Assembly: GCF_048403405.1 (NCBI RefSeq)
Contig: NZ_CP183129.1
Reading direction: 5' to 3' (one strand)
Source of the DNA: Escherichia coli
GTDB lineage: Bacteria; Pseudomonadota; Gammaproteobacteria; Enterobacterales; Enterobacteriaceae
Length of the DNA stretch: 64,000 nt
Below the pieces are notes generated by a model. It was not told the origin of the DNA. It did no database searches and worked only from the letters and a program-made list of their open reading frames with translations. This document shows positions 16,747 through 42,179 of this stretch, piece after piece (the first letter of the stretch is position 1; every line of letters starts with the position of its first letter). A program made the position numbers and the translations under genes.

Positions 16747-17790
16747 TTATCCACGTAGTGTAGCCGCAAAATCCAGCATACGATTGAGCGGCACCAGCGC
16801 CCTCTCTCGCAGCCTTTCCTCAACATGAACCTCGTGATTGCTTCCTTCCTGTTCTAATGCCTCTGCGATGGCCTGAAGGCCATTCATGGCCATCCACGGA
16901 CAATGCGCGCAGCTGCGGCAGGTTGCACCCTCACCAGCGGTTGGTGCTTCCAGTAACTCTTTATCTGGCACCGCCTGCTGCATTTTGTAGAAAATACCCC
17001 GATCGGTTGCCACAATAAGCCTCTGATGTGGCAATGTTTTCGCAGCAGCGATCAGTTGACTGGTGGAACCGACCGCATCCGCCATCTCTACAATAGCTTG
17101 TGGTGATTCTGGATGCACCAGTATGGCAGCATCCGGGTATTCTTCTTGCAAGCGGGTTAACGCCTGAGTCTTAAATTCATCATGCACAATGCAGGCACCC
17201 TGCCAGCATAAAATGTCTGCGCCCGTCTGTTTTTGCACGTAACGCCCCAGATGTTTGTCGGGTGCCCAGATGATTTTTTCACCCAAACTATCCAGATGAT
17301 CAATAAGTTCGACGGCAATGCTTGAAGTTACCACCCAATCTGCCCGCGCTTTTACCGCAGCAGAAGTGTTGGCGTAGACGACGACAGTATGATCGGGATG
17401 GGCATCGCAAAATGCGTTAAATTCTTCAACAGGGCAGCCGAGATCCAGTGAACATTCAGCCTGAAGTGTCGGCATCAGAATTGTTTTTTCCGGACTGAGA
17501 ATTTTGGCGGTTTCTCCCATAAATCTCACCCCAGCGACTAACAACGTAGAAGCGGGATGCTTTGCACCGAAGCGCGCCATTTCCAGAGAATCAGAAATAC
17601 AGCCACCGGTTTCTTCTGCCAGTTGTTGAATTTCGGGATCGGTATAGTAATGGGCAACCATCACCGCATTACGTTCTTTTAGCAGACGTTTTATCTTCTC
17701 GCGGTAATACGCTTTTTCATCAATGCTTAACGGCGTCGGCTTCGGGGGGAAAGGATAAATCGCCGTGTCTGGATCAAACATCACGCTCAT
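16747..17790 (-). CDS. nadA: Quinolinate synthase A
   Basis: Start set at [18 protein letters not shown] (347 aa) rather than the first ATG of the ORF; recognised as NadA. Confidence 0.93.
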
Positions 17791-17861
17791 CTTACCATCT
17801 CGTTTCACAGGCTTAACGTTAAAACCGACTTAAGCGTGATATTCGCTATTATCGGCGTAAT

Positions 17862-17881
17862 TTGTTTTATATGCTAAACAA
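17862..17881 (-). promoter_or_regulatory. Candidate NadR operator upstream of nadA
   Basis: Inverted repeat ttgttt-N8-aaacaa (ttgttttatatgctaaacaa) about 80 bp upstream of nadA, resembling the NadR TGTTTA...TAAACA dyad. Confidence 0.45.
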
Positions 17882-18035
17882 GATAGTCGAATGGTGGGGA
17901 AAAGTCACTCGAATTACGTATGAGATGACGAATGCCACACTTTGCGTCTTATTCCTCCGACGTAGAGTTGTTTACGCAGCAAGCGCGGAGTATGTCATCA
18001 GGGTTAAGCATTGAAATTGAGAGATGCCTGAATAG

Positions 18036-18064
18036 CAAAAAAGCGCCTTTAGGGCGCTTTTTTA
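18036..18064 (-). terminator. Terminator of the Lys/Val tRNA operon
   Basis: aaaaaagcgcc-ttta-gggcgctttttt hairpin flanked by T/A runs on both strands. Confidence 0.65.
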
Positions 18065-18066
18065 CA

Positions 18067-18083
18067 TTGGTGGGTCGTGCAGG
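18067..18083 (-). pseudogene. 17-nt remnant of a tRNA-Lys 3' end
   Basis: tggtgggtcgtgcagga is identical to the 3' terminal 17 nt (read as reverse complement) of the intact tRNA-Lys copies, then diverges; it abuts the operon terminator. Confidence 0.5.
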
Positions 18084-18165
18084 ATGACTCGCTTCGCTCG
18101 CCCTACGGGCCGTTGCTGGCGCAACGTTATCCTTCACGCTTAACATCTGAGTTTGATGTTAAAAT

Positions 18166-18241
18166 TGGTGGGTCGTGCAGGATTCGAACCTGCGACCAAT
18201 TGATTAAAAGTCAACTGCTCTACCAACTGAGCTAACGACCC
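18166..18241 (-). tRNA. tRNA-Lys (anticodon UUU)
   Basis: 76-nt match to E. coli tRNA-Lys read on the minus strand (GGGTCGTTAGCTCAGTTGGTAGAGC...CACCA); encoded CCA. Confidence 0.95.
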
Positions 18242-18244
18242 GAG

Positions 18245-18320
18245 TGGTGGGTGATGACGGGATCGAACCGCCGACCCCCTCCTTGTAAGGGAGGTGCTCT
18301 CCCAGCTGAGCTAATCACCC
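18245..18320 (-). tRNA. tRNA-Val (anticodon UAC)
   Basis: 76-nt match to E. coli tRNA-Val (GGGTGATTAGCTCAGCTGGGAGAGC...); 3-nt spacer from the neighbouring tRNA-Lys. Confidence 0.95.
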
Positions 18321-18371
18321 GATACTGCGCTGGATACTACAAACTACTTCCACCGAACCCACCGTAATTAG

Positions 18372-18447
18372 TGGTGGGTCGTGCAGGATTCGAACCTGCG
18401 ACCAATTGATTAAAAGTCAACTGCTCTACCAACTGAGCTAACGACCC
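18372..18447 (-). tRNA. tRNA-Lys (anticodon UUU)
   Basis: Identical copy of the tRNA-Lys sequence. Confidence 0.95.
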
Positions 18448-18449
18448 GG

Positions 18450-18525
18450 TGGTGGGTGATGACGGGATCGAACCGCCGACCCCCTCCTTGTAAGGGAGGT
18501 GCTCTCCCAGCTGAGCTAATCACCC
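18450..18525 (-). tRNA. tRNA-Val (anticodon UAC)
   Basis: Identical copy of the tRNA-Val sequence; 2-nt spacer. Confidence 0.95.
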
Positions 18526-18560
18526 GATACTACGCTGGATACTACAACTAACTAGGTTAG

Positions 18561-18636
18561 TGGTGGGTCGTGCAGGATTCGAACCTGCGACCAATTGATT
18601 AAAAGTCAACTGCTCTACCAACTGAGCTAACGACCC
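18561..18636 (-). tRNA. lysT: tRNA-Lys (anticodon UUU)
   Basis: Promoter-proximal copy of tRNA-Lys in the array. Confidence 0.95.
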
Positions 18637-27732: not shown

Positions 27733-28069
27733 CATGACTCCTTGCTCATCGCATGAAGACTCCGAGAGTGAACCCCGTTAGAAAGGGTCACACGCATGCC
27801 CCAATACAAAATTATTTGCTCGCCTCTATCGTTGCCATTTCATCAAAAGAGGAAAAGACAATGATAAAAAAGTTACAAATATGTTAATGAATAAACCAAA
27901 TTGATCCCGTAATTATATTACGCCGCAAAATCCTTACAATAAACAGGTTTTTATTGAGCAAATTTGCATTTTTCGACAGTGATCAATTTATAGCGAAATT
28001 GTCACGATCTCACCAATTTGATCTACGACAATTTATCGTGTTTTGCAGATTTTTTTCAAGAATTAAAAA

Positions 28070-28083
28070 TTGATTTATATCAA
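28070..28083 (-). promoter_or_regulatory. Candidate FNR site in the cydA upstream region
   Basis: Perfect TTGAT-N4-ATCAA (ttgatttatatcaa) about 340 bp upstream of cydA; a weaker half-site match ttgatctacgacaa lies at 28018-28031. Confidence 0.55.
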
Positions 28084-28537
28084 AACCAACCAAATATGTT
28101 AATTATGTATAAACCATAGATCATTGGTGATTTTATTGTTAATTTATTGTGAAATATTTATGCAACACAATTATTACAATGAAAAGGTATAGATAAAAAA
28201 CCAGTGTTTTATTTAACAGAACCGCCTTATCCACTTTTTATAATACCAATTGATTAGATTAGCCAATTTGTTGCTATTTTACATAACATATTTTTATCAA
28301 AGTTAATTGATTGTTGCGTTTATGAGCACCGGCCGTAAGCCCGTTATGTTATTGTTTCATTAGTAATAATCACTTAAATGTATCGATGAAACAGGTATGA
28401 CTTAGCGGGAGTGATTGTTTCTGAGTGAACAGAGACCACTTTCGCCTGATAAATGAAAAATGAGCGATTTTTGCAAGTTAGTTTTTCTATAGCCGAGTAC
28501 GCTCAGCGCCTCGCTTGATTACAATGAGGTTGCTGCT

Positions 28538-29482
28538 ATGAGTCCTGATAATATCAGTTCTGCTGTCAATCGCTTCTCAGGTTGGCCATCTAATGATCCT
28601 CTAAAAACAGATAAAGAATCAATGACATCACCCATGACTGTGCAGGTAATAAAGATGATTGCCGCCATCCTTGACCCACATCGGATAGTCGTTGGAATCG
28701 ATACACTTTATACAACGCAGCGCGAAACATTTACCTCAGAGAGTCAACAGCTCATTGAATCAGCATTGCAAACACTTCATGTGATGAATTTAAATAACCT
28801 GGAAACAAATCTCGATGAGGAAGGTCACTATCTGGCTTTTGGATATAACGTTGACACTCCTGACAGAATAACCGTTTCTGCTTATAATGAAAAAAAGCCT
28901 GGCTGCTATGGCCAATGTCTTTTAATACAGGATGACGAAACAGACTTATTTAACCTGATAAAAGTTAAAATTTTTGAAGCCAGGCATAATTATGTCGCTC
29001 AATTGATGAGCGATCCGGAATTTATGTTCAAATTTAGTTATAGCGCTCAACAAAATAGATTAGAACCTCATCTTCTGGTTCCCACTTATTTCCCTCTAAA
29101 AACAAACGAACCGGTTACGCAAGAGGATGTACTGTTACTTTATCGTTTCTTTAAAATGGATGGTGATTTTAATATATTAACATCAGATGAATACATGAGT
29201 ATCATGACACCTCTGATGAAGTGTGAGCGCAGCATCCACGACCACAACAGGTATGTGACGGGCAAAGATACCCTTCTTCTGGACTATCCTCCTTCTGGTA
29301 ACCAGATATATTTCCATATTTTTCCTGACGAATCAGCAACACTAGTCCTTTATTTTTCAAACAATGACATTGAATGTTTCGTCTTTGAAAGAGATATTCC
29401 GAGCCAGTATCGCTTTTTCAAAATGTTTACCAATCTGGCACTGGTTATTGATCAGTTAACCGATGCCAATCAAATACTTTAA
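28538..29482 (+). CDS. Hypothetical protein, 314 aa, no recognisable domain; in an AT-rich block
   Basis: Long ORF in a visibly AT-rich region; polar Ser/Pro/Asn-rich N-terminus (MSPDNISSAVNRFSGWPSNDP), no signal peptide or TM segment seen; plausible purine-rich RBS-like stretch upstream (aatgaggttgctgctATG). Confidence 0.6.
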   Translation: MSPDNISSAVNRFSGWPSNDPLKTDKESMTSPMTVQVIKMIAAILDPHRIVVGIDTLYTTQRETFTSESQQLIESALQTLHVMNLNNLETNLDEEGHYLAFGYNVDTPDRITVSAYNEKKPGCYGQCLLIQDDETDLFNLIKVKIFEARHNYVAQLMSDPEFMFKFSYSAQQNRLEPHLLVPTYFPLKTNEPVTQEDVLLLYRFFKMDGDFNILTSDEYMSIMTPLMKCERSIHDHNRYVTGKDTLLLDYPPSGNQIYFHIFPDESATLVLYFSNNDIECFVFERDIPSQYRFFKMFTNLALVIDQLTDANQIL

Positions 29483-29562
29483 TTTTTATATATTCCCTGT
29501 GGCAAATATTGCTAAACAATGCCCGGGGATTAATTTTTATTACTCACGGAAAGATTTAAATA

Positions 29563-29985
29563 ATGATCCCATCTCAAATCTCTTTCAACACCCTTCCTGT
29601 CAATGCAACATACGCTTCAGAGACAACAGTTGACACACAAAAATTCTCTGACATCCTCTACTCAGCGGGGTGTTCCCTAAAGGATCTGGCTTATTTGAGC
29701 AGATGTCTGGCATCAATACATCCGACTATCGCCAAAAACATTTATGAAACAGAAAATCTCAGCGATCAAAAATTACTACATATTGATTGCCGTAGTACAA
29801 ATGAAATCAAGATAAATATCTTTTTTGGTCAACAACGAGAAGGATTAATTGAAATTAGTTCTGACACAGTCATTTTTTCGATACTGTCTTCATTGATTGA
29901 CTCCACCATTTCTAAATTTCAACACCAAAACCCCGTTAACGGTTCTGTAAATCCTGACCTATTGTATGAGGATTATACTGATTAA
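29563..29985 (+). CDS. Hypothetical protein, 140 aa, acidic, no recognisable domain
   Basis: ORF 80 bp downstream of the 314-aa ORF on the same strand; by my count about 17 Asp+Glu against about 9 Lys+Arg; same AT-rich context. Confidence 0.5.
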   Translation: MIPSQISFNTLPVNATYASETTVDTQKFSDILYSAGCSLKDLAYLSRCLASIHPTIAKNIYETENLSDQKLLHIDCRSTNEIKINIFFGQQREGLIEISSDTVIFSILSSLIDSTISKFQHQNPVNGSVNPDLLYEDYTD

Positions 29986-30532
29986 ATCCCTCCTGTCGCG
30001 AAAAATGGCCTGCGTTATTGCCAGACGTAATAAAACTTTTGATTAACGTTTCTCGTACTGGTAGCACCTTCATGTACTTTTCTTTTTTACGAAAAATCAA
30101 AAGAGCTAACAAAGGTCATAATTCGCATGAATCATTAATTATTTGTTATTTTCAACATTATTTTTACATTAAGCAGAGATGAATTGCAGTGAAATTCGAC
30201 TTAACTTTTATGAAATGCATTTACTCATGGCTAAAGCCACGTCACAAAAATGCAAATTAGAAGTAGATCACAAATATCTCAATACATCAAATCAAGTTAA
30301 TTTTAAAAATTTAATATTCATGACATTAGTTGACATAACACACTGAATTATAATGAGAATTTGAAAACACACTTTAAACAATCATTTCCCGAAAGACATT
30401 TTGAAAATAGATCAATTGCAACATTACGGTCAGATAAAGACACTCCTGTGATATTAAACCTGTGCCGTTATGAACGGCCATAAATACGACGTGTGTAACT
30501 TATTTTACTCTCTGTCTTACAAAGGATTACCC

Positions 30533-30982
30533 ATGAAGAAAGCAACACTTGTGATTGGCGTTATTGGCGCGGACTGCCATGCAGTAGGCAATAAAGTTCT
30601 GGACCGCGTTTTTAGCAACCATGGCTTCAGAGTCATTAATCTGGGCGTAATGGTCAGCCAGGACGAATATATTGATGCTGCCATTGAAACTGGTGCTGAC
30701 GCGATTGTCGTCTCCTCTATCTATGGGCATGGCGATATCGATTGTCTGGGCATGCGCGAACGCTGCATTGAGCGTGGGCTGGGTAACATCCTGCTCTATG
30801 TGGGCGGTAACCTGGTGGTCGGAAAACATGACTTCGCTGACGTGGAAACCAAGTTCAAAGAGATGGGATTTGATCGCGTCTTTGCCCCAAGTCATGACTT
30901 AGAAGATGTTTGTCAGCTGATGGCCCACGATATCAACCAACGTCATGACGTTGATACTCGCATTCTTGAAGAGGCAATCTGA
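30533..30982 (+). CDS. mamA: Glutamate mutase sigma (S) subunit, B12-binding component
   Basis: Start set at [21 protein letters not shown] (good RBS aaaggattacccATG); carries the cobalamin His-ligand motif DxHxxG (DCHAVG); close resemblance to clostridial GlmS/MutS as I recall them. Confidence 0.9.
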
Positions 30983-32370
30983 TGCAAATCGTCTCTGTCG
31001 ATATTGGATCGACGTGGACCAAAGCAGCCCTCTTCGCCCGGGAGGGGGACGCGTTAACGTTGGTTAACCACGTACTGACCCCAACCACCACCCATCATCT
31101 GGCGAAGGGTTTTTTCTCCAGCCTGAACCTGGTGTTAAACGTAGATAATGCCCTCCCCCTGTTTAACAACGGTGAGGTTGCATTGAAGTATTCCTCCTCT
31201 GCCAAAGGTGGGCTGGCGGTTGCCGCAATGGGGTTGGTGCCATCTATCACCCTGGAAACCGCGAAAGTAACCGCTCACTCTGCGGGGGCTAAAATTGCGC
31301 AATATTACGCCTACAAGCTGAACCGCCGTGATATCCAGGCACTGGAAGAAACGCAGCCCGATATTCTCTTGTTCACCGGCGGCACCGACGGCGGAGAAGA
31401 AAGCTACGGCCTGAATAACGCCCGTGTGCTGGCAGAATCCAAACTCGACTGCGCCATTATTTATGCCGGAAACCGGGATATTCAGGACGAGGTGCAGGAG
31501 ATCCTAGGGCATAAAGACCTGACCATCGTCGACAACGTTCTGCCCGATCTTGACCATCCGAACCCTTTAGCTGCACGCCAGGCTATCTGCGACATATTCC
31601 TTAAACGCATCGTTAAAGGGAAAGGGCTGGATGTCATTGTTGATAAAACAGGCGAAGAACCAATGCCGACACCATGGACGGTCTTTGAACTGGTTAAGGC
31701 AATCAGTAACGTCGATCACAGCTGGAAAGAGTTCATGCTTATCGACATGGGCGGCGCAACCACCGATGTCTATTCAGCCTGTGCCAACACGCTCTCGCCC
31801 GACACCGTTTTACACGGCGTACCGGAACCCTTCGTGAAACGGACGGTGGAAGGCGATCTGGGAATGCGCGTCTCGGCAATGGTGGTTGGTGAAAGTGCGA
31901 AAGAGTTAGTCAATGTGAATTTTGCTCAGCAACCCGCACAGCTGGACGCTTTTTATCATTACCTCCGTCATCTAGTCGCTCATCCCGACTACTTACCCGC
32001 GAATGTAGAAGAAAAATATTTCGATACCGTCCTGGCCGGACTGTGTGTGGGTTATGCCACCGAAAGACATGCGGGCACCAAAAAAGAGGTCTGCACCTGC
32101 GTCGGCAATGTCGATTTACAGATGGGACGTGACCTGACAACCGTGCGTAAAGTCGTCGGATCCGGCGGATGGCTCTCGCGTGCCAGTCAGTTCGATATGC
32201 ATCACTGGTTGAAATACCGCGAGTTAAACGACGACGGTAAACGCATTCTCTTACCGACCGAATTTGAATATTACCGCGATTCCCGGGGGCTATTACCACT
32301 GCTGGCAAACGTCGCCAGAGTCGATCCGCTGGCCGCCGCGCGCACCAGTATTCAATGCTTAACCCTATAA
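30982..32370 (+). CDS. glmL: Glutamate mutase-associated L component (MutL/GlmL-like, putative reactivating chaperone)
   Basis: 462-aa ORF whose ATG overlaps the S-subunit stop (ATGA); sits between S and E as in clostridial mutS-mutL-mutE; N-terminus [18 protein letters not shown] is an ASKHA-type phosphate-1 motif. Confidence 0.75.
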   Translation: MQIVSVDIGSTWTKAALFAREGDALTLVNHVLTPTTTHHLAKGFFSSLNLVLNVDNALPLFNNGEVALKYSSSAKGGLAVAAMGLVPSITLETAKVTAHSAGAKIAQYYAYKLNRRDIQALEETQPDILLFTGGTDGGEESYGLNNARVLAESKLDCAIIYAGNRDIQDEVQEILGHKDLTIVDNVLPDLDHPNPLAARQAICDIFLKRIVKGKGLDVIVDKTGEEPMPTPWTVFELVKAISNVDHSWKEFMLIDMGGATTDVYSACANTLSPDTVLHGVPEPFVKRTVEGDLGMRVSAMVVGESAKELVNVNFAQQPAQLDAFYHYLRHLVAHPDYLPANVEEKYFDTVLAGLCVGYATERHAGTKKEVCTCVGNVDLQMGRDLTTVRKVVGSGGWLSRASQFDMHHWLKYRELNDDGKRILLPTEFEYYRDSRGLLPLLANVARVDPLAAARTSIQCLTL

Positions 32371-32388
32371 CAATTAAGGCTGCAATCA

Positions 32389-33834
32389 ATGGAACTTCGA
32401 AATAAGAAATTAACCCATGACGAATTCATGACCGAGCGGCAACAGGTACTGAAAACCTGGGAAACCGGCAAGGATGTTGAAAACTTTGAAGATGGCGTTA
32501 AATACCAACAAACCATTCCTGAGCATAAACGCTTCTCTCTTGTGCTGTTGAAAGCAGACAAGGAAGGTAAAACCCTTAGCCAACCGCGCGCAGGTGTGGC
32601 GCTGATGGACGAACACATCGAACTACTGAAAACACTACAAGAAGAGTGCGATCTGCTGCCGAGCACTATCGATGCATATACCCGTCTGAATCGGTACGAA
32701 GAAGCGGCTGTAGGGATTAAAAAATCCATCGAAGCCGGAACCTCTAAACTGAACGGTTTACCGGTCGTTAACCACGGCGTCGCAGCTTGCCGTCGCCTCA
32801 CCGAAACTTTGCAAAAACCGCTACAGATCCGCCACGGCACGCCAGATGCGCGTCTGCTGGCTGAAATCTCGATGTCCAGCGGCTTTACCAGTTATGAAGG
32901 CGGCGGCATTTCCTACAATATTCCGTATGCCAAGCGCGTAACGCTGGAAAAATCGATCCGCGACTGGCAGTACTGCGACCGTTTAATGGGGATGTATGAA
33001 GAACACGGGATCCGCATCAACCGCGAACCGTTTGGCCCACTAACGGGTACGCTGATCCCGCCGTTTATCTCGCACTCTATCGCGATAATCGAAGGCTTGC
33101 TGGCGCTGGAACAGGGTGTGAAATCTATCACCGTTGGTTATGGACAGGTCGGCAGCCTGACGCAGGATGTTGCGGCGATCCAGTCTCTGCGTGAACTTGC
33201 ACACGAATATTTTCAGAGCTATGGCTATACCGACTATGAATTAAGTACCGTGTTTCACCAGTGGATGGGCGGCTTTCCGGAAGACGAATCGAAAGCGTTC
33301 GCTATTATCTCCTGGGGCGCAGCCGTCGCGGGGATGTCTGGTGCCACCAAAGTCATCACCAAAAGTCCGCACGAAGCCTGGGGTATCCCGACTGCCGCTG
33401 CCAACATTCAGGGGCTGAAAGCCTCCCGCCAGATGCTCAACATGGTCAACGAGCAGAAATTCCCGCCGTGCCCTGCGGTTGAACTGGAAATTGAACTGAT
33501 TAAGAGCGAGGTTCGCGCGGTACTGAATAAAGTGTTCGAACTGGGTAATGGTGATATTGCGCGCGGTACGGTGCTGGCATTTGAAGCGGGCGTACTGGAT
33601 GTGCCGTTTGCGCCAGCCGCCTGCAACGCGGGCAAAATTCTTCCGGTCCGTGACAACACCGGCGCGATACGCGTACTGGAAGCCGGAGCCGTTCCATTGC
33701 CAAAAGATATTCTCGACCTCCACCACGATTACGTTGCGGAACGCGCACGCTTTGAAGGACGCCAACCGACATTCCAGATGGTTGTAGATGACATCAATGC
33801 TGTATCCCACAGTAAATTAATAGGAAGACCATAA
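32389..33834 (+). CDS. glmE: Glutamate mutase epsilon (E) catalytic subunit
   Basis: 481 aa; MELRNKKLTHDEF..., QPRAGVALMDEHIELL, LPSTIDAYTR, NGLPVVNHGV and GGGISYNIPYAK closely parallel clostridial GlmE/MutE as I recall it. Confidence 0.9.
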   Translation: MELRNKKLTHDEFMTERQQVLKTWETGKDVENFEDGVKYQQTIPEHKRFSLVLLKADKEGKTLSQPRAGVALMDEHIELLKTLQEECDLLPSTIDAYTRLNRYEEAAVGIKKSIEAGTSKLNGLPVVNHGVAACRRLTETLQKPLQIRHGTPDARLLAEISMSSGFTSYEGGGISYNIPYAKRVTLEKSIRDWQYCDRLMGMYEEHGIRINREPFGPLTGTLIPPFISHSIAIIEGLLALEQGVKSITVGYGQVGSLTQDVAAIQSLRELAHEYFQSYGYTDYELSTVFHQWMGGFPEDESKAFAIISWGAAVAGMSGATKVITKSPHEAWGIPTAAANIQGLKASRQMLNMVNEQKFPPCPAVELEIELIKSEVRAVLNKVFELGNGDIARGTVLAFEAGVLDVPFAPAACNAGKILPVRDNTGAIRVLEAGAVPLPKDILDLHHDYVAERARFEGRQPTFQMVVDDINAVSHSKLIGRP

Positions 33835-35075
33835 TGAAAATAAAACAGGCTCTGTTCACCGCTGGCTACTCCTCATTCTATTTCGATGACCAGCAGGCGA
33901 TAAAAAACGGAGCGGGTCACGACGGTTTTTTTTATACCGGGGAGCCGGTAACACAGGGGTTTAACGCCGTTCGTCAGGCCGGGGAGTGCGTATCGGTACA
34001 GTTGATTCTGGAAAACGGCGCGGTCGCCGTAGGTGACTGTGCTGCCGTACAGTATTCCGGGGCAGGTGGTCGCGATCCACTGTTCCTCGCAGAGCACTTT
34101 ATTCCGTTCCTCAACGACCATATCAAGCCATTACTGGTAGGCCGCGATGTGGATGCTTTCCTGCCGAATGCCCGTTTCTTCGACAAATTGCGTATTGACG
34201 GCAACTTGCTGCATACCGCCGTGCGCTACGGATTATCACAGGCGCTGCTTGATGCTACCGCGCTGGCAACCGGCCGTCTGAAAACTGAAGTGGTCTGTGA
34301 TGAATGGCAGTTGCCACGCGTGGCGGAATCCATTCCATTATTTGGTCAGAGCGGCGACGATCGATATATCGCCGTCGATAAGATGATCCTTAAGGGCATC
34401 GACGTGCTGCCCCATGCGCTGATTAATAACGTCGAAGAGAAGCTGGGCTTTAAAGGTGAAAAACTGCGCGAATATGTCCGCTGGCTGTCGGATCGTATTC
34501 TGAGCAAGCGCACCAGCGCACGCTACCACCCTACCCTGCACATCGATGTATACGGCACTATCGGTCTGATCTTCGATATGGATCCGCTTCGCTGTGCGCA
34601 ATACATCGCCAGCCTGGAAAAAGAAGCGCAAGGCCTGCCGCTCTACATTGAAGGGCCGGTCGATGCTGGTAACAAGCCCGATCAAATTCGCCTGCTGACC
34701 GCGATTACCAAAGAGCTGACACGCCTCGGTTCCGGCGTGAAAATTGTGGCCGATGAATGGTGTAACACCTACCAGGATATTGTTGATTTCACAGATGCCG
34801 CCAGTTGCCACATGGTGCAAATCAAAACCCCGGATCTGGGCAGTATTCACAACATCGTCGATGCGGTTCTTTACTGCAACAGCCACAGCATGGAAGCGTA
34901 CCAGGGCGGCACCTGCAATGAAACTGATGTCAGTGCCCGCACCTGTGTCCACGTCGCCCTTGCCGCTCGCCCTATGCGTATGCTGGTAAAGCCAGGGATG
35001 GGCTTTGACGAAGGCCTCGATATCGTCTTCAACGAAATGAATCGTACTATCGCGCTGTTGCAGGCTAAGGATTAA
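33834..35075 (+). CDS. mal: 3-Methylaspartate ammonia-lyase (enolase superfamily)
   Basis: 413 aa; ATG overlaps the glmE stop; DCAAVQYSGAGGRDPLF, QSGDDRY, LPHALINNVEEKLG, HMVQIKTPDLG and GGTCNET match MAL as I recall it. Confidence 0.93.
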   Translation: MKIKQALFTAGYSSFYFDDQQAIKNGAGHDGFFYTGEPVTQGFNAVRQAGECVSVQLILENGAVAVGDCAAVQYSGAGGRDPLFLAEHFIPFLNDHIKPLLVGRDVDAFLPNARFFDKLRIDGNLLHTAVRYGLSQALLDATALATGRLKTEVVCDEWQLPRVAESIPLFGQSGDDRYIAVDKMILKGIDVLPHALINNVEEKLGFKGEKLREYVRWLSDRILSKRTSARYHPTLHIDVYGTIGLIFDMDPLRCAQYIASLEKEAQGLPLYIEGPVDAGNKPDQIRLLTAITKELTRLGSGVKIVADEWCNTYQDIVDFTDAASCHMVQIKTPDLGSIHNIVDAVLYCNSHSMEAYQGGTCNETDVSARTCVHVALAARPMRMLVKPGMGFDEGLDIVFNEMNRTIALLQAKD

Positions 35076-35078
35076 CAA

Positions 35079-36449
35079 ATGGCTCGTTCTTTTAAAGTCT
35101 TATCGCCAACGGCAATCCTCGGGTATGGATTCCCGGAAGAGAGCTTCCGTAAAGCGATGGCAGAATCGCCCGATCTGATCGCCGTTGATGCAGGCTCTTC
35201 CGATCCTGGCCCCCACTACCTCGGGGCGGGCAAACCGTTTACCGATCGCGCAGGGGTCAAGCGCGATCTGCGCTATATGATCACCGCAGGCGTGCAAAAT
35301 AATATACCGGTGGTGATCGGAACGGCTGGCGGTTCTGGTGCCGCACCACACCTGGAGTGGTGCCGAGAAATAATTCATGAGATTGCCCAGGAAGAGCACC
35401 TCTCGTTCTCAATGGCGCTGATCCCGGCAGACGTTGACAAAGCCATCGTCCACCAGGCGCTGGATAACGGCAAAATCACGGCGCTGGAGTTTGTCCCGCC
35501 GTTAACCCACGACGCGATTGACGAAAGTACGTATATCGTTGCGCAAATGGGCATCGAACCCTTCCAGCGGGCGCTGAAAGAAGGCGCGCAAGTGGTGCTG
35601 GGCGGGCGCGCTTACGACCCGGCCTGCTTTGCTGCGCTTCCGATCATGCAAGGCTTTGATGAAGGTCTGGCGCTGCATTGTGGGAAAATCCTTGAATGCG
35701 CGGCAATCGCCGCAACGCCCGGCTCAGGCTCTGACTGTGCGATGGGCATCATTGATGACAACGGCTTTACGCTGAAGACATTTAATCCGAAGCGTAAATT
35801 TACCGAAACGTCAGCGGCTGCACACACACTGTATGAGAAATCCGATCCCTACTTCCTGCCTGGACCTGGCGGCGTGTTGAACCTGAAAGGCTGCACATTT
35901 AAAGCGGTCAATGACAGCGAAGTGTACGTCAGCGGTTCTAAGCATGAAGAAACGCCGTATGCCCTGAAACTGGAAGGTGCGCGACGAGTGGGCTTCCGCT
36001 GTCTGACCATCGCAGGAACGCGCGACCCGATCATGATCGCCGGGATCGATAAAATCATCGATGAAGTCAAAACCAGCGTTTCGCGTAACCTGTCGCTCGA
36101 CGATGACAGCATTCGCATCAATTTCCACCTGTACGGCAAAAACGGGGTGATGGGAGACCATGAACCGATGCAAACTGCCGGGCATGAGCTGGGGATTGTC
36201 CTTGATGTAGTTGCACCGACCCAGGAAATTGCCAACAGCGTTTGCTCGCTGGTGCGCTCTACCATGCTGCACTACGGCTATGAAAACCGCATCGCTACCG
36301 CAGGTAATCTGGCGTTCCCGTTCTCCCCTTCTGATATCCAGGGCGGGCCGGTATACGAATTTTCCATATATCACCTGATTGAAGCCAACGACGCTCTGCG
36401 TTTTGATTTCCATATTGAACAGGTGACGCCAGAAGGAGTTCAGGCATGA
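35079..36449 (+). CDS. Uncharacterised protein, probably DUF1446 / AtuA-like family
   Basis: 456-aa ORF starting 4 nt after the MAL stop; family assignment is from memory of AtuA-like N-terminal features and is not verified. Confidence 0.5.
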   Translation: MARSFKVLSPTAILGYGFPEESFRKAMAESPDLIAVDAGSSDPGPHYLGAGKPFTDRAGVKRDLRYMITAGVQNNIPVVIGTAGGSGAAPHLEWCREIIHEIAQEEHLSFSMALIPADVDKAIVHQALDNGKITALEFVPPLTHDAIDESTYIVAQMGIEPFQRALKEGAQVVLGGRAYDPACFAALPIMQGFDEGLALHCGKILECAAIAATPGSGSDCAMGIIDDNGFTLKTFNPKRKFTETSAAAHTLYEKSDPYFLPGPGGVLNLKGCTFKAVNDSEVYVSGSKHEETPYALKLEGARRVGFRCLTIAGTRDPIMIAGIDKIIDEVKTSVSRNLSLDDDSIRINFHLYGKNGVMGDHEPMQTAGHELGIVLDVVAPTQEIANSVCSLVRSTMLHYGYENRIATAGNLAFPFSPSDIQGGPVYEFSIYHLIEANDALRFDFHIEQVTPEGVQA

Positions 36450-36763
36450 AACAGTCAATTGTCTCACTGGCGCAAGTCATTCGTTCGAAAAATGCCGGAC
36501 CTTACGAACTGGTTTTAGATATTTTATTTAAAACCAAAGAAAACTATGAGCGTGTCAAATCATCAGGGCAATTAACCCCAGAACTGATCGCGCGCTTATA
36601 TCATGTTGAACCTGACTTTATTCATCGTATTGTCTGGTTTGATCCTTCTAACGCAGTAAAAATCGTCATGCCACGAGATATTATCTCCGGGAATGTAGGT
36701 GACAATGATGTCTATGGTGCACAGCAACATGCACCTTTATTAAATATGAGTTTCGATTTGTAA
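36446..36763 (+). CDS. Small uncharacterised protein, possibly DUF4387, coupled to the upstream ORF
   Basis: 105-aa ORF whose ATG overlaps the upstream stop (ATGA); family name is a tentative recollection. Confidence 0.45.
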   Translation: MKQSIVSLAQVIRSKNAGPYELVLDILFKTKENYERVKSSGQLTPELIARLYHVEPDFIHRIVWFDPSNAVKIVMPRDIISGNVGDNDVYGAQQHAPLLNMSFDL

Positions 36764-36846
36764 AAATCCGAATACTTTTAGCCAACTGACATCCCGTCAC
36801 TTATTGCAGTTCAACACTTCAGCTATTTGTAAGGTTGTAATAGCAG

Positions 36847-36878
36847 GTAGATGCCTGAATCTCTATTCGGGCATCTAC
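36847..36878 (+). terminator. Intra-operon stem-loop (possible partial terminator or attenuator)
   Basis: 9-bp perfect stem gtagatgcc / ggcatctac with a 14-nt loop, followed by a U-rich but interrupted tract (ttctcctgattctgattt); lies between the small coupled ORF and the transporter. Confidence 0.4.
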
Positions 36879-36923
36879 TTCTCCTGATTCTGATTTATCG
36901 CCGTGCACCTGATGGAGGAAAAA

Positions 36924-38204
36924 ATGAAGAAAATAAGTTTAACCACGATGATTCTTTTGGCGCTGGTACTTGGAATGATTATCGGCGTAGTGCTCAATAA
37001 CACTGCTTCACCGGAAACCGAAAAACTCTATGCGCAAGAAATATCGATATTCACGACGATTTTCTTACGACTGATAAAAATGATTATCGCTCCGTTAGTG
37101 GTCTCTACCCTGGTGGTAGGTATAGCTAAAATGGGCGATGCCAAAGCCCTTGGTCGTATTTTTTCTAAAACACTCTTTTTATTTATTTGCGCCTCATTGC
37201 TGTCAATTGCCTTAGGCTTGATAACAGTAAATTTCTTCATGCCAGGCACAGGAATTAATTTTGTTGCACACGGAGCCGAAACCACCGGAGTGGTCGCGTC
37301 AGAACCCTTTACGCTAAAAGTATTTATTTCGCATGCTTTCCCCACCAGCATTGTCGATGCCATGGCGCACAATGAAATTTTGCAAATCGTGGTGTTCTCA
37401 ATTTTCCTCGGCTGTAGCCTGACGGCGATTGGCGAGAAAGGCAGCGCCATCGTTCACGCCTTAGATTCGCTGGCACATGCCATGTTAAAGCTCACTGGCT
37501 ACGTCATGCTCTTCGCTCCCCTGACCGTATTCGCTGCTATTTCAGCATTGATTGCTGAACGAGGACTGGCAGTTATGGTGAGCGCCGGGATCTTTATGGG
37601 TGAATTTTATTTCACCATGTTATTACTTTGGGTGCTGCTTATCGGTCTGGCCATCGTTTATGTTGGCCCCTGCATCAGACGCCTGACCCGCGCCCTTTCG
37701 GAACCCGCCCTGCTGGCATTTACCACATCCAGTTCTGAAGCGGCTTTTCCGGGAACGCTTGAAAAACTGGAGCAATTTGGCGTTTCCCCCAAAATTGCCA
37801 GCTTTGTCTTACCCATTGGCTACTCATTTAATCTTGTTGGATCAATGGCCTACTGCTCCTTCGCCACAGTTTTCATCGCCCAGGCCTGCAATATCCATTT
37901 ATCCATCGGTGAGCAAATCACCATGCTGTTGATCCTGATGTTGACCTCGAAAGGAATGGCTGGCGTACCACGCGCCTCAATGGTGGTTATCGCCGCCACG
38001 CTCAACCAGTTCAATATTCCGGAAGCGGGGCTGATCTTGCTGATGGGCGTTGATCCGTTCCTTGATATGGGGCGTTCCGCGACAAACGTCATGAGCAACG
38101 CAATGGGCGCTGCGATGGTGAGTCGGTGGGAAGGCGAACATTTCGGCGAGGGTTGTCGGGGTAAAGCATTAAAACCCAATGAATCGAACGTTGCTCTGCC
38201 CTGA
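36924..38204 (+). CDS. Dicarboxylate/amino acid:cation symporter (DAACS family; GltP/DctA-like)
   Basis: Start at MKKISLTTMILL with RBS ggagg 5 nt upstream; about 426-aa polytopic protein; LRLIKMIIAPLV and surrounding TM pattern typical of DctA/GltP family carriers. Confidence 0.8.
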   Translation: MKKISLTTMILLALVLGMIIGVVLNNTASPETEKLYAQEISIFTTIFLRLIKMIIAPLVVSTLVVGIAKMGDAKALGRIFSKTLFLFICASLLSIALGLITVNFFMPGTGINFVAHGAETTGVVASEPFTLKVFISHAFPTSIVDAMAHNEILQIVVFSIFLGCSLTAIGEKGSAIVHALDSLAHAMLKLTGYVMLFAPLTVFAAISALIAERGLAVMVSAGIFMGEFYFTMLLLWVLLIGLAIVYVGPCIRRLTRALSEPALLAFTTSSSEAAFPGTLEKLEQFGVSPKIASFVLPIGYSFNLVGSMAYCSFATVFIAQACNIHLSIGEQITMLLILMLTSKGMAGVPRASMVVIAATLNQFNIPEAGLILLMGVDPFLDMGRSATNVMSNAMGAAMVSRWEGEHFGEGCRGKALKPNESNVALP

Positions 38205-38311
38205 GGGGGATCTTAAGCAATCAGAAGCCAATGACTACGCATTTTTATAAGCCGGATCATGAAGTTAGACGGCAATTAAGTAAAACTAACGTTTAAGGTG
38301 AAAAGTGAAAT

Positions 38312-39964
38312 ATGTCCAAACCATTTATCTGGCAAGAACCGTTTCTACAAAATAAAGACGGTACAGAATATACATTAATTAGCGATCAACATATTACAGT
38401 AACGGAATTAGACGGCGAAGAAGTAATAAAAATCGCTCCTGAAGCATTAACGCTGCTTGCCCGGCAGGCATTTTATGAAGCCTCTTTTTTCTTACGTTCC
38501 GCTCATTTGCAACAGGTCGCCAGCATTCTTAACGATCCGCAGGCCAGTAGTAATGATAAATACGTTGCGTTGCAGTTATTACGTAATGCTGAAGTCTCAG
38601 CAAAAGGGGTATTACCCAACTGTCAGGATACCGGCACCGCAACTATTGTTGCCAGTAAAGGGCAACAGATATGGACGGGAGGTAACGACGCTGAAGCCTT
38701 AAGCAAAGGCATTTACAGTACTTTCCAGGAAAATAACCTGCGCTTTTCACAAAATGCGCCGCTGGATATGTACACCGAAGTCAATACGCAAACCAATCTC
38801 CCGGCGCAGATTGATATCAGCGCTGTCGCTGGTGATGAGTACCATTTTCTCTGTATTAATAAAGGGGGCGGCTCTGCCAATAAAGCCGCGCTTTATCAGG
38901 AAACCAAATCCTTATTGCAACCAGAAAAACTGACCGCATTTTTAATCGAAAAAATGAAATCGCTGGGCACCGCTGCCTGCCCGCCTTACCACATCGCCTT
39001 TGTCGTCGGAGGGCTTTCAGCCGATCAAACCTTAAAAGTTGCCAAGCTGGCCTCAACGAAATATTACGACAATTTGCCCACCAGCGGAAACGAGCAAGGA
39101 CAAGCATTCCGTGATATTGAGCTGGAAAAAGTATTGCTCGAGGCCAGTCAGCAATTTGGTATTGGTGCGCAATTTGGAGGTAAATATTTCGCTCATGATA
39201 TTCGCGTCATTCGTCTGCCGCGTCACGGTGGCTCCTGCCCGATAGCTATGGCGCTCTCCTGTTCTGCCGATCGCAATATCAAAGCAAAAATTAACAAGCA
39301 CGGTATCTGGCTGGAAAAACTCGAACACAATCCGGGGCAATATATTCCAGCCTCACTGCGGGAAGAAAATCACGCGCAACATGTACAACTGGATCTAAAC
39401 CGTCCGTTGCGTGACGTGATGCAGGATCTCGCCAGATTACCGGTAGGCACCCGCGTGTCGTTAAGTGGTCCCATCGTAGTGGCACGCGATATCGCCCACG
39501 CCAAAATAAAAGCGCGGCTGGATAACGCCGAACCGATGCCGGATTACCTGAAGCATCATATTGTCTATTACGCTGGCCCGGCGAAAACACCGGAGAACAT
39601 GGCCTGCGGTTCACTGGGTCCAACCACGGGCGGTCGAATGGACGGTTATGTCGATACCTTCCAGGCGGCTGGCGGCAGTCTGGTGATGTTATCGAAAGGT
39701 AACCGCAGCCAGCAGGTCACCGATGCCTGTCACAAACATGGTGGCTTCAATCTGGGTAGTATTGGCGGTGCAGCTGCGTTACTGGCGCAAGAATATGTCA
39801 AAAGTCTGCGTTGCCTGGAATACCCGGAGCTGGGTATGGAAGCGGTGTGGATGATGGAAGTGGAAAATCTGCCCGCATTCATCCTGGTAGATGATAAAGG
39901 CAATAATTTCTTTAGTCAGTTTGAGCAGCAACACCGCTGCGCCAGTTGCCCTGCGGGACATTAA
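38312..39964 (+). CDS. fumD: Class I fumarate hydratase-type hydratase, probable mesaconase (FumD-like)
   Basis: 550 aa, same size class as FumA/FumB; N-terminal [22 protein letters not shown]... and [10 protein letters not shown] ([4Fe-4S] hydro-lyase signature region) recognised. Confidence 0.85.
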
Positions 39965-39973
39965 GGAAAATGA

Positions 39974-40576
39974 ATGGAAGCGCGAATTTCAACTGAACGG
40001 CATGTGCAGCGCCAGCAGAAATTGAAGGAACAGGTCGATACGCGCGTCGCGGCGGCGATAGAGAAAAAAGGGATTTTGATTGTTTTCACCGGCAATGGCA
40101 AAGGGAAATCCACTGCCGCGTTTGGTACTGTGACGCGCGCGGTGGGTCATGGCAAAACGGTGGGGGTTGCGCAGTACATCAAGGGGCAATGGGACAACGG
40201 CGAATACAACCTTCTCCAGCCGCTGGGGGTTGAGTTTCATATTATGGGAACCGGTTTTACCTGGGAGACACAGAACCGGCAAGCGGATATCGACGCGGCG
40301 AAAGAGGTCTGGTCGGAAAGCAAACGGATGCTGGCTGACAAGCGTTACGACTTAGTGGTGCTTGATGAGCTGACCTATATGCTGGCTTACCATTATCTGG
40401 ACACCGAAGAAGTGATCGCTTCTCTGCAAAACCGCCCGGCACAACAAAGTGTCATTGTCACCGGACGCGGTTGCCACAGTCAGATATTAAAAATGGCGGA
40501 TACGGTCAGCGAAATCCGCCCCGTCAAACATGCTTTTGATAACGGCATTCAGGCGCAGCCGGGTATCGACTGGTAA
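39974..40576 (+). CDS. Cob(I)yrinic acid a,c-diamide / cob(I)alamin adenosyltransferase (CobA/BtuR family)
   Basis: 200 aa; P-loop GNGKGKST; near-colinear with E. coli BtuR as I recall it (IIVFTGNGKGKTTAAFG...GFTWETQNR...VVLDELTYM...VKHAFD). Confidence 0.88.
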   Translation: MEARISTERHVQRQQKLKEQVDTRVAAAIEKKGILIVFTGNGKGKSTAAFGTVTRAVGHGKTVGVAQYIKGQWDNGEYNLLQPLGVEFHIMGTGFTWETQNRQADIDAAKEVWSESKRMLADKRYDLVVLDELTYMLAYHYLDTEEVIASLQNRPAQQSVIVTGRGCHSQILKMADTVSEIRPVKHAFDNGIQAQPGIDW

Positions 40577-40579
40577 TAA

Positions 40580-40606
40580 CTGCGCCTGGCATCCCGCCAG
40601 GCGCAG
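40580..40606. terminator. Bidirectional terminator between the adenosyltransferase gene and the convergent LysR gene
   Basis: Perfect 11-bp inverted repeat ctgcgcctggc / gccaggcgcag with a 5-nt loop, flanked by A/T; abuts both stop codons. Confidence 0.7.
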
Positions 40607-40609
40607 GTT

Positions 40610-41515
40610 TTACATCTCCTGCGGTACGACCGATTTCGCCAGCAACCATTCACGAAATTGCTGCAAGTGCGGCGAGTCAGACTTCTCTTCCTGCCACGTC
40701 ATAATAAAACGATTACCGGTACGAATAGGCACATCACAGGGAATCACCATATCGCCACTATCCAAATCATGTTGAATAGCGAACCGTGGTAACAGCGCCA
40801 CGCCGAGATTAGAGCGCACGGCGGCAATCAGCATTGAAAGCAAATCGAAACGTGGTCCGTTATTGACCAGCGGACTGCTAACGCCAGATAAAGCAAACCA
40901 CTCTTCCCAGCCAGTAATACGGGTGCTTTGATGCAGAAGTGGTAACTCAGTAAGCAGTTCTGCCACTGACAGTTTTTGATCGGACATTGCAAGCAAACTG
41001 CCGCTGCATACCGGCAAAATCTCCTCATCAAAGAGATATTCTACTTCCGCCCAGGGCGCGCAAAAATTTTCGCGCATAATGACAGCATCGTACTCCCGAT
41101 TAAGAAAATCGCCGTTATTAGCTAAAGAATGAATATTAACAATAATATCGGGATGTAACTTTGTGAATTCATGTAAATTTGGGATTAACCAGTGGGTACT
41201 AAAAGTAGGATTAACGGCAAGTTCAATAACCTGAACCGTAGGCTGCCAGGTCATAATGGTATTGGTATCGCGTTCCAGCTTATTTAATGTTTCTTTTACT
41301 ATCCCCAGGTAATACTTCCCTGCATCATTAAGAAAAATACGTTTTTTAGAGTGTGAAAATAACGGAGTATGTAAAAATTCCTCCAGCGCACTCACTTGTC
41401 TGAATACAGCACTTTGGGTTAACGCTAACTCCTCTGCCGCTCTGGTATAACTTTCATGACGTGCGACGACCTCAAAAGTCACCAGCAGCTCCGTTTTAGG
41501 TATTTTTCCTCGCAT
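40610..41515 (-). CDS. LysR-type transcriptional regulator
   Basis: 301 aa; N-terminal HTH (ESYTRAAEELALTQSAVFRQVSALEE) and LysR substrate-binding domain. Confidence 0.88.
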   Translation of the reverse strand: MRGKIPKTELLVTFEVVARHESYTRAAEELALTQSAVFRQVSALEEFLHTPLFSHSKKRIFLNDAGKYYLGIVKETLNKLERDTNTIMTWQPTVQVIELAVNPTFSTHWLIPNLHEFTKLHPDIIVNIHSLANNGDFLNREYDAVIMRENFCAPWAEVEYLFDEEILPVCSGSLLAMSDQKLSVAELLTELPLLHQSTRITGWEEWFALSGVSSPLVNNGPRFDLLSMLIAAVRSNLGVALLPRFAIQHDLDSGDMVIPCDVPIRTGNRFIMTWQEEKSDSPHLQQFREWLLAKSVVPQEM

Positions 41516-41554
41516 AATGCCGTCCCTTAAAAATAGTTTAAACCATCAAAAATA

Positions 41555-41576
41555 CATTACTTATTACGAAGTAATG
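41555..41576 (-). promoter_or_regulatory. Dyad-symmetric site upstream of the LysR gene (candidate autoregulatory operator)
   Basis: Perfect inverted repeat cattactt-attacg-aagtaatg centred about 50 bp upstream of the LysR start codon, in AT-rich DNA. Confidence 0.4.
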
Positions 41577-42080
41577 GTAACCAAAGCAGCAATAAATAAT
41601 TTATAAGAATCATGATTGACATTTATAACCCAGTAAGCCTGGCGTGACAAATATCTTAATCAGATAATAATAATCCGAAAAGCACAGCGCCTTTCGAATT
41701 ATCCGGAATCACATTAAGTGAAAATTATTAAATTGATATCATTTATCATATCTGTGGATATTATGATAAACAATCAACAAAGATTTTATTTTTGATTTAT
41801 AGCATATCCCTCTAAGAATTTTTGCGATGCTGCAATATCCGGGTAAAGACCCGATCCTGGCTGACAAATGGCACGACTTGACGATAAGCGGTGAACATCG
41901 CTTTTGTTGATTTACTTAACGCTACGGTCAAACGCTGGGAAGCCAGTGCATCAGGTAACGATTCGAAATTCGCCGTCGTTCTTATTCGTGGCTTGCGGTC
42001 GGTTGCGGCAATCCACAGTGGCTGTGGTCATGCAGTCAAGCCAGCGGTCAGATTTCGACCGTGGTTAACATTTAAGGCAT

Positions 42081-42179
42081 AAAAAAGGCCATCATACGAT
42101 GGCCAACCATGTCGAAACCGACAGCCCTTCGCCATTCCTGTAGAGGGAAGCGGCGAGGGCTATTTCTTATTACAGATAT
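42081..42179 (-). ncRNA. sdhX: Probable SdhX (RybD)-type sRNA from the sucD 3' UTR, with intrinsic terminator
   Basis: Directly downstream of the sucD stop; ends in hairpin ggccatcgtatgatggcc followed by a T run (read on the minus strand); K-12 has an sRNA at this position; the 5' boundary is undefined because it is a processing product. Confidence 0.55.

Follow-up and report, generated by a model that had tools for sequence, protein, structure and literature searches.

A gene pair of the glutamate island of Escherichia coli predicted to encode a two-subunit citramalate lyase

Analysis of a 64,000-nucleotide stretch of the Escherichia coli chromosome (contig NZ_CP183129.1, here called the window) pointed to two adjacent genes, cmlA and cmlB, which very probably encode a heteromeric lyase for (S)-citramalate. 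This enzyme would complete the methylaspartate route that is carried by a glutamate-fermentation island. A sequence-only reading of the same DNA had placed open reading frames of 456 and 105 amino acids here and had proposed them as the citramalate-cleaving step that the pathway would need. Both frames were confirmed at those positions, and the proposed step was supported by matches of the two proteins to chains A and B of PDB entries 9ERQ and 9EVF and by a recent preprint. The function itself was already known from the work of others, namely the structures, which were released in October 2025, and a preprint of January 2026. The orthology, the two-subunit form, the gene context, the absence of a CitDEF-type lyase and the fold were analysed here; the substrate and products were taken from the names and titles of the PDB entries and from that one preprint.

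Assignment of the gene pair to citramalate lyase

Comparison with Pfam matched the 456-residue protein to AtuA (PF07287, formerly DUF1446; E 5e-19, residues 63-393) and the 105-residue protein to DUF4387 (PF14330; E 2.9e-39), which confirmed the DUF1446/AtuA assignment of the sequence-only reading. A sequence search of the PDB matched the larger protein over residues 1-456 to chain A of 9ERQ and 9EVF (E 8.8e-292; 92.1% identity, 36 of 456 residues different) and the smaller protein to chain B (E 5.2e-57), and there was no match to an unrelated characterised enzyme. Chain A carried the molecule names “Acyclic terpene utilization AtuA family protein” and “Citramalate lyase, subunit A (cmlA)”, and chain B carried “DUF4387 domain-containing protein” and “Citramalate lyase, subunit B (cmlB)”. 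The two entries were titled “Citramalate lyase - AMPPNP - citramalate complex” and “Citramalate lyase - ADP - pyruvate complex”. Both chains were present in both entries, which showed that the subunits form a complex. The sequence of chain A was 100% identical to that of a Klebsiella michiganensis locus (L007), in which the nine-gene cluster was found in the identical order. The E. coli proteins were like the Raoultella/Klebsiella CmlAB in subunit length, in the order of the island genes and in keeping all residues invariant in the clade; the differences between them, including about 15 substitutions in CmlB, were all located at variable positions.

The reaction was reported in the preprint (January 2026), where cmlAB of Raoultella converted citramalate to pyruvate and acetate in vivo. 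The mesaconate-dependent growth of an acetyl-CoA auxotroph disappeared on curing of the cml plasmid, and 13C labelling traced the mesaconate carbon into acetyl-CoA. The description of the activity as “undescribed” in the sequence-only reading no longer applies, the structures having been released, and its other options (an activity on mesaconate or methylaspartate, or an accessory function for the mutase) gained no support. In an earlier study, no enzyme for citramalate cleavage was found in the island of E. coli O157. The task was not performed by citrate lyase, isocitrate lyase or methylisocitrate lyase, and a DUF1446 gene located 3' of mal, of unknown function at that time, was flagged (Kronen & Berg 2015, PMC4682846). 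The same study showed that FumD of E. coli O157:H7 was an efficient mesaconase, with a kcat/Km of 2e6 M-1 s-1 for mesaconate, and the gene at 38312, which had been picked out as the candidate hydratase, was indeed fumD.

The two genes were intact and located on the same strand (Table 1). The TAA codon of mal was separated by a 3-nt spacer from the ATG of cmlA, and the TGA of cmlA shared bases with the ATG of cmlB in the tetranucleotide ATGA. This spacing and overlap indicated translational coupling of mal, cmlA and cmlB inside one operon. The expression “translationally fused”, used earlier for the position of the pair after mal, was thus right as to the coupling, but the genes were not literally fused. 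The dN/dS values (nonsynonymous to synonymous substitution rates) against Klebsiella were 0.037 for cmlA and 0.073 for cmlB, with a range of 0.04-0.07 when Salmonella orthologues were included; both genes are under strong purifying selection.

Table 1. Coordinates of the gene pair, the island genes and related features outside the window
Feature	Position	Strand	Description
cmlA	35079..36449	+	456 aa (amino acids), ATG start; citramalate lyase large subunit (predicted), AtuA/ex-DUF1446 domain
cmlB	36446..36763	+	105 aa, ATG start; citramalate lyase small subunit (predicted), DUF4387
mal-cmlA coupling site	35067..35081	+	Shine-Dalgarno-like AAGGA 35067-35071, TAA 35073-35075, ATG 35079-35081; sequence read directly
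cmlA-cmlB coupling site	36432..36449	+	GAAGGAG 36432-36438, ATGA 36446-36449; sequence read directly
glmS	30533-30982	+	RefSeq, identical locus; B12-dependent glutamate mutase, pathway step 1
glmL/mutL	30982-32370	+	RefSeq, identical locus; glutamate mutase reactivase
glmE	32389-33834	+	RefSeq, identical locus; glutamate mutase, pathway step 1
mal	33834..35075	+	RefSeq; 3-methylaspartate ammonia-lyase (MAL), step 2, makes mesaconate
Dicarboxylate/amino acid:cation symporter (GltP-like)	36924..38204	+	RefSeq; likely glutamate uptake
fumD	38312..39964	+	RefSeq; class I fumarase/mesaconase, step 3, mesaconate to (S)-citramalate
cobO	39974..40576	+	RefSeq; cob(I)yrinic acid a,c-diamide adenosyltransferase, adenosylcobalamin supply for mutase
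LysR-type regulator	40610..41515	-	RefSeq; divergent at operon end, presumed island regulator
P-loop protein, first example	L002:11712-12662		outside the window
P-loop protein, second example	L005:11677-12618		outside the window
cmlAB pairs without mutase/MAL	L003, L004, L034		Accumulibacter
cmlAB pairs without mutase/MAL	L065, L080, L084		Shewanella
cmlAB pair without mutase/MAL	L071		Desulfospira

No citramalate lyase name or model was found for either subunit in RefSeq, Pfam or NCBIfam release 20 (June 2026), and CmlAB was not mentioned in the 2025 methylsuccinate paper of the Berg laboratory or in the 2021 review by Buckel. The RefSeq names of the identical genes were “acyclic terpene utilization AtuA family protein” and “DUF4387 domain-containing protein”. 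Several homologues of CmlA (e.g. P0002, P0059, and P0073) were named “3-methylaspartate ammonia-lyase” in NCBI and had no domain in common with MAL. It had been remarked that some MAL names were given to DUF1446 homologues “for unknown reason” (Kronen & Berg, PMC4682846). This label on the CmlA homologues is a propagated mis-annotation.

Gene context across genomes and the classical lyase

Related loci were collected by a scan of one genome per species, which gave 80 loci with CmlA relatives at 56-92% identity, and their neighbours were identified by tblastn with the island proteins of the window. The loci were distributed over about ten phyla. The proteobacterial members belonged to Enterobacterales, Rhodocyclales, Alphaproteobacteria, and Shewanella, and the other groups were Riflebacteria, Aminicenantes/Acidobacteriota, Spirochaetota, Lentisphaerota, Bacillota, Chloroflexota, Desulfobacterota, Myxococcota, and Planctomycetota. 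The cmlB gene was located directly 3' of cmlA in all 76 loci with enough flank. MAL was located directly 5' of cmlA in 64 of 71 loci and within 4.2 kb in two more, GlmE was located 5' of cmlA in 61 of 68 and GlmS in 54 of 60, and a class I fumarase was found in 29 of 50. In two distant examples (Riflebacteria and one unrelated genome), the order of Pfam domains was GntR-GlmS(B12-binding)-MutL-GlmE(Met_asp_mut_E)-MAL(MAAL)-AtuA-DUF4387, with a fumarase gene nearby. Co-occurrence of the pair with glutamate mutase and MAL, on which the earlier proposal depended, was thus conserved across phyla.

The position of the gene next to mal, together with the MAL names of some homologues in NCBI, would also fit an accessory or second 3-methylaspartate ammonia-lyase, or a helper of glutamate mutase. 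This explanation can scarcely be correct. Pfam gave only AtuA and DUF4387 for the pair and no MAAL_N, MAAL_C, or enolase-superfamily domain, and the true MAL is the upstream gene. A dedicated reactivase of the mutase, GlmL/MutL, is already encoded in the island, and the solved complex holds citramalate or pyruvate.

The classical citramalate lyase was also searched for. Tblastn with the six E. coli Cit proteins (CitC, CitD, CitE, CitF, CitX, and CitG) was negative in the 64-kb window, which agreed with the earlier statement that no citrate/citramalate lyase subunits were present, and it was equally negative in 86 related loci. A canonical lyase was encoded solely by citCDEFXG, about 110 kb from the island in the collinear strain 4621, and extracts rich in citrate lyase did not cleave citramalate (PMC4682846). 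The context of cmlAB and the lack of Cit homologues suggested that the CmlAB clade replaces the clostridial CitDEF-type lyase by non-homologous displacement. CmlAB is like the classical CitDEF (with CitC, CitX, and CitG; EC 4.1.3.6 / 4.1.3.22; Clostridium tetanomorphum, E. coli) in the overall reaction and in its position at the end of the methylaspartate pathway, but has no sequence similarity to it by tblastn. It consists of two subunits instead of three plus three helpers, has no acyl-carrier subunit, phosphoribosyl-dephospho-CoA (CoA, coenzyme A) or activation genes, and binds an adenine nucleotide, as the PDB titles show.

The N-terminal domain of CmlA (about 235 residues) was of the alpha/beta type, and the C-terminal domain was ferredoxin-like and rich in beta structure. 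Lyases of the isocitrate lyase/PEP mutase and HMG-CoA-lyase types also cleave a C-C bond beside a carbon that bears a hydroxyl group, with a carboxylic acid or an acyl unit as the released product, and the isocitrate lyase family demonstrates that cleavage of a free acid without a thioester is chemically feasible. Membership among the TIM-barrel C-C lyases (isocitrate lyase/PEP mutase, HMG-CoA lyase, CitE/HpcH) was considered and rejected because CmlAB has no (beta/alpha)8-barrel catalytic domain. The fold of CmlAB is unlike that of any known C-C lyase.

An alignment of 24 sequences showed that CmlA of the window keeps every invariant position of the clade. The invariant motifs included DxGSxDPGP (37-45), GTAGGSG (81-87), R177/D180, H200-GK-ILEC (200-207), and PGSGSDC (214-220). 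In CmlB, residues R13, S14, K15, N16, G18, D25, K72, R77, D88, and Q93 were at least 90% conserved among stand-alone and fused homologues, and this pattern suggests that the charged residues among them (R13, K15, D25, K72, R77, and D88) contribute to a ligand site.

Several points weigh against the assignment as citramalate lyase. The activity is attributed from the names given by the depositors, the ligand content and one preprint in which the enzyme was used, and for the E. coli copy it would follow by orthology. Extracts of E. coli O157 showed no citramalate lyase activity (Kronen & Berg, PMC4682846); MAL activity was equally absent from those extracts, which implied that the island was not expressed in those cells. 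In addition, a few close cmlAB pairs (56-68% identity) were found without mutase or MAL within 10 kb. Their neighbours were housekeeping genes (rpoBC, hrpA, fadE, RND efflux, and a histidine kinase) and were uninformative in Shewanella and Desulfospira. These pairs indicated that the clade is not strictly bound to the methylaspartate pathway, and they suggest another source of citramalate or a reverse (biosynthetic) use.

Such pairs would also fit a CmlAB that runs in reverse or acts on another 2-hydroxy-dicarboxylate (such as malate, citrate, or methylmalate), with citramalate as no more than the ligand that was crystallised. The reaction is near equilibrium, and the authors of the preprint suspected that 20 mM acetate disfavours cleavage. 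Even so, we consider this quite improbable for the island: the setting of the pair in about 90% of loci, between MAL and a class I fumarase/mesaconase, delivers (S)-citramalate, mesaconate carbon reached acetyl-CoA in vivo solely with the cml plasmid, and citrate and malate are handled by other enzymes in E. coli.

A P-loop protein of about 313 aa with the Walker A motif GAEGSGKST was encoded in approximately 42 non-enterobacterial glm-mal-cmlAB loci; in most of these its gene directly followed cmlB, and in a few it was located at another place in the cluster. Its identity was 46-100% across Riflebacteria, Aminicenantes, Spirochaetes, Rhodocyclales, and Clostridia, and neither the window nor any Enterobacterales locus contained it. 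No significant Pfam family and no NCBIfam match above the cut-off were found, and the PDB match to ABC-type ATPases was weak (E 2e-4). This protein may be an accessory ATPase of the methylaspartate pathway.

Relation to AtuA and the proposed role of the nucleotide

A search with CmlB of 1.8 billion representative proteins gave 1162 relatives, of which the majority were stand-alone and about 105 aa long. Among the best 140 relatives there were ten long proteins; DUF4387 was located at or towards the C-terminus in nine of these (e.g. 621, 608, 668, 661, and 735 aa) and at the N-terminus in one (P0142). Two fused AtuA+DUF4387 proteins (608-621 aa) aligned with CmlA from end to end at 37-40% identity, which indicated that in CmlAB the canonical, fused architecture of AtuA is divided between two proteins. 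The positions common to the CmlA clade and seven fused forms included R177, D180, H200, K203, E206, C207, H249, Y252, E253, and N410. By contrast, the loop PGSGSDC (214-220), R239, and R404 were specific to the CmlA clade and different in the fused forms; judged by this distribution, they are candidates for recognition of the free dicarboxylate.

AtuA of the Pseudomonas/Thauera terpene pathway is homologous to the pair over its whole length, with CmlB corresponding to its fused C-terminal DUF4387. We know of no demonstration of AtuA activity. In the Thauera paper, AtuA was tentatively assigned as the lyase converting 3-hydroxy-3-isohexenylglutaryl-CoA to acetate and a 3-oxoacyl-CoA, a reaction that, like citramalate cleavage, frees acetate from a tertiary beta-hydroxy acid and leaves a ketone. 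The two cleavages are of the same chemical type, so the AtuA family assignment and the function of CmlAB are mutually consistent. The differences are that AtuA is one polypeptide, is encoded in an atu cluster and acts on a CoA ester. Measured against AtuA in the strict sense, the pair has the Pfam AtuA domain, but it consists of 456 + 105 aa and not of a single polypeptide of about 600 aa.

The Pfam match, the RefSeq name and the lyase role tentatively given to AtuA would allow the pair to be the AtuA lyase of terpene catabolism itself. Against this, no atu genes (geranyl-CoA carboxylase, hydratase, acyl-CoA dehydrogenase, or synthetase) were found in the island or the window. The low identity to the fused AtuA-type proteins contrasted with 92% to the citramalate lyase structure, the protein is split, with the clade-specific residues altered in the fused forms, and the solved orthologue binds citramalate or pyruvate and no CoA ester. 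A terpene lyase is thus a most unlikely identity for the pair, and citramalate lyase is the preferred one.

In the proposed pathway, glutamate would be converted to 3-methylaspartate by GlmSE, with GlmL and adenosylcobalamin from CobO, and MAL would release ammonia to give mesaconate. FumD would hydrate mesaconate to (S)-citramalate, which CmlAB would cleave to pyruvate and acetate without CoA or an acyl-carrier protein. Cleavage of a free beta-hydroxy acid is difficult as it requires a stabilised carboxylate-alpha-carbanion, and the classical lyase answers this problem with a thioester on a carrier protein. For CmlAB, the ligand pairs in the two structures (AMPPNP with citramalate, and ADP with pyruvate) suggested a transient acyl phosphate. 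The C4 carboxylate of citramalate would be transiently phosphorylated by ATP, and the phosphorylated citramalate would be cleaved to pyruvate and acetyl phosphate as an enolate, which avoids a departing carboxylate dianion that is not activated. Transfer of the phosphoryl group back to ADP would give net free acetate; otherwise acetyl phosphate would leave. A recycled activating group on the departing acetyl would possibly be a further likeness to CitDEF, as a thioester there and, by inference, a phosphoryl in CmlAB.

Binding of an adenine nucleotide by CmlAB is known from the PDB titles. Its participation in catalysis through such an acyl-phosphate cycle is suggested by the ligand pairs and is possible at somewhat less than an even chance; the alternative is an allosteric or structural role of the bound nucleotide. 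The conserved glycine-rich loops of CmlA are compatible with nucleotide binding but are no proof of it. In the preprint, the product was given as acetate and ATP was not mentioned; the strain needed up-regulation of Acs, and no deletion of pta or ackA was listed, so that free acetate fits better than released acetyl phosphate. Net ATP hydrolysis by CmlAB is unlikely, considering the bioenergetics of a low-yield fermentation. It is only tentatively proposed that ATP serves CmlAB as a recycled cofactor, by C4 phosphorylation and formation of the acetyl phosphate enolate, and that this chemistry is general to the AtuA/DUF4387 superfamily including the terpene AtuA.

The island in the E. coli chromosome

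The island occupies the cydA-sucD interval of the E. coli chromosome (window 27736-42179), and its nine genes, in the order glmS-glmL-glmE-mal-cmlA-cmlB-gltP-fumD-cobO, were all intact. The symporter gene was kept solely in Enterobacterales loci, as shown by tblastn of the related loci. The LysR-type gene of the island was labelled LTTR in Fig 5 of PMC4682846. According to RefSeq, the cydA-sucD interval of the collinear strain 4621 contained two hypothetical genes, the glutamate island and the LysR gene, and no other genes. In E. coli K-12 this position carries mngR-mngAB, and the island may be an alternative occupant of the site. The 1685-base cml stretch was present in 1125 of 5426 complete genomes (21%) and was 100% identical in many of them.

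Two hypothetical open reading frames, 28538-29482 (314 aa) and 29563-29985 (140 aa), were observed at the cydA-proximal edge of the island. The GC fraction of this stretch was 0.36, compared with approximately 0.50-0.55 nearby. No NCBIfam family was found for either frame and no significant Pfam family for the 314-aa frame. These AT-rich frames are probably separately acquired cargo. Outside the island, the window contained the core genes pgl, mod, gal, tol-pal, cyd, suc, sdh, gltA, and pxp and a fimbrial operon (RefSeq, collinear strain). The nadA-cpoB interval (window 17777-18636, by collinearity with L088) contained seven tRNA genes (five Lys and two Val) and the RtT sRNA (small RNA), an ordinary core feature.

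The transporter gene is separated from cmlB by a gap of 160 nt, in which a 15-bp hairpin (window 36846-36879), GGUAGAUGCCUGAAU-CUCU-AUUCGGGCAUCUACU, was followed by a pyrimidine-rich tail. The RNA of this gap had a folding energy of -37.8 kcal/mol, with z = -3.7 against shuffled sequences. A simple terminator scan near the hairpin called only a 5-bp stem (36844-36857) and not the 15-bp hairpin. The hairpin could be a partial terminator or stabiliser that divides the glmSLE-mal-cmlAB from the gltP-fumD-cobO transcripts. A consensus scan of the island for promoters and terminators showed no enrichment over shuffled sequence, with 7 sigma-70 promoter-like sites against 14.3 expected.

This low number of promoter-like sites would fit a copy that encodes a true citramalate lyase but is a silent relic in E. 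coli, with no natural expression or physiological role. Kronen & Berg (PMC4682846) likewise observed no anaerobic growth on glutamate and no MAL activity, and did not succeed in inducing the island. The sequence data argue in the other direction: the nine genes are intact, the dN/dS values of cmlA and cmlB are low, and 1121 of the 1125 carrier genomes keep the cml stretch at 95-100% identity and at least 80% coverage. The island also encodes a LysR regulator, a transporter and a cobalamin adenosyltransferase, a gene set typical of an operon that is induced under certain conditions. A silent relic is therefore improbable.

With CmlAB, a gap of ten years (since Kronen & Berg 2015) in the disposal of citramalate by the glutamate-fermentation island is closed. 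The island would encode all steps of a B12-dependent conversion of glutamate to pyruvate, acetate and ammonia, with a lyase unrelated to the classical six-gene system, and its carriers are about one fifth of E. coli, including most O157:H7, and many other enteric pathogens. Thousands of genomes could be re-annotated in which these genes are labelled “AtuA family”, “DUF4387” or, in some cases wrongly, methylaspartate ammonia-lyase. CmlAB, which is already in use as a CoA-independent module of synthetic carbon-fixation pathways, provides the first experimentally anchored function for the AtuA/DUF4387 superfamily and supports the older guess that AtuA is an acetate-releasing lyase of terpene catabolism. 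If the proposed use of ATP as a recycled cofactor is true, the AtuA/DUF4387 proteins, thousands of them in bacteria and fungi, would be lyases of a new class, in which a nucleotide assists the removal of acetate from beta-hydroxy acids.

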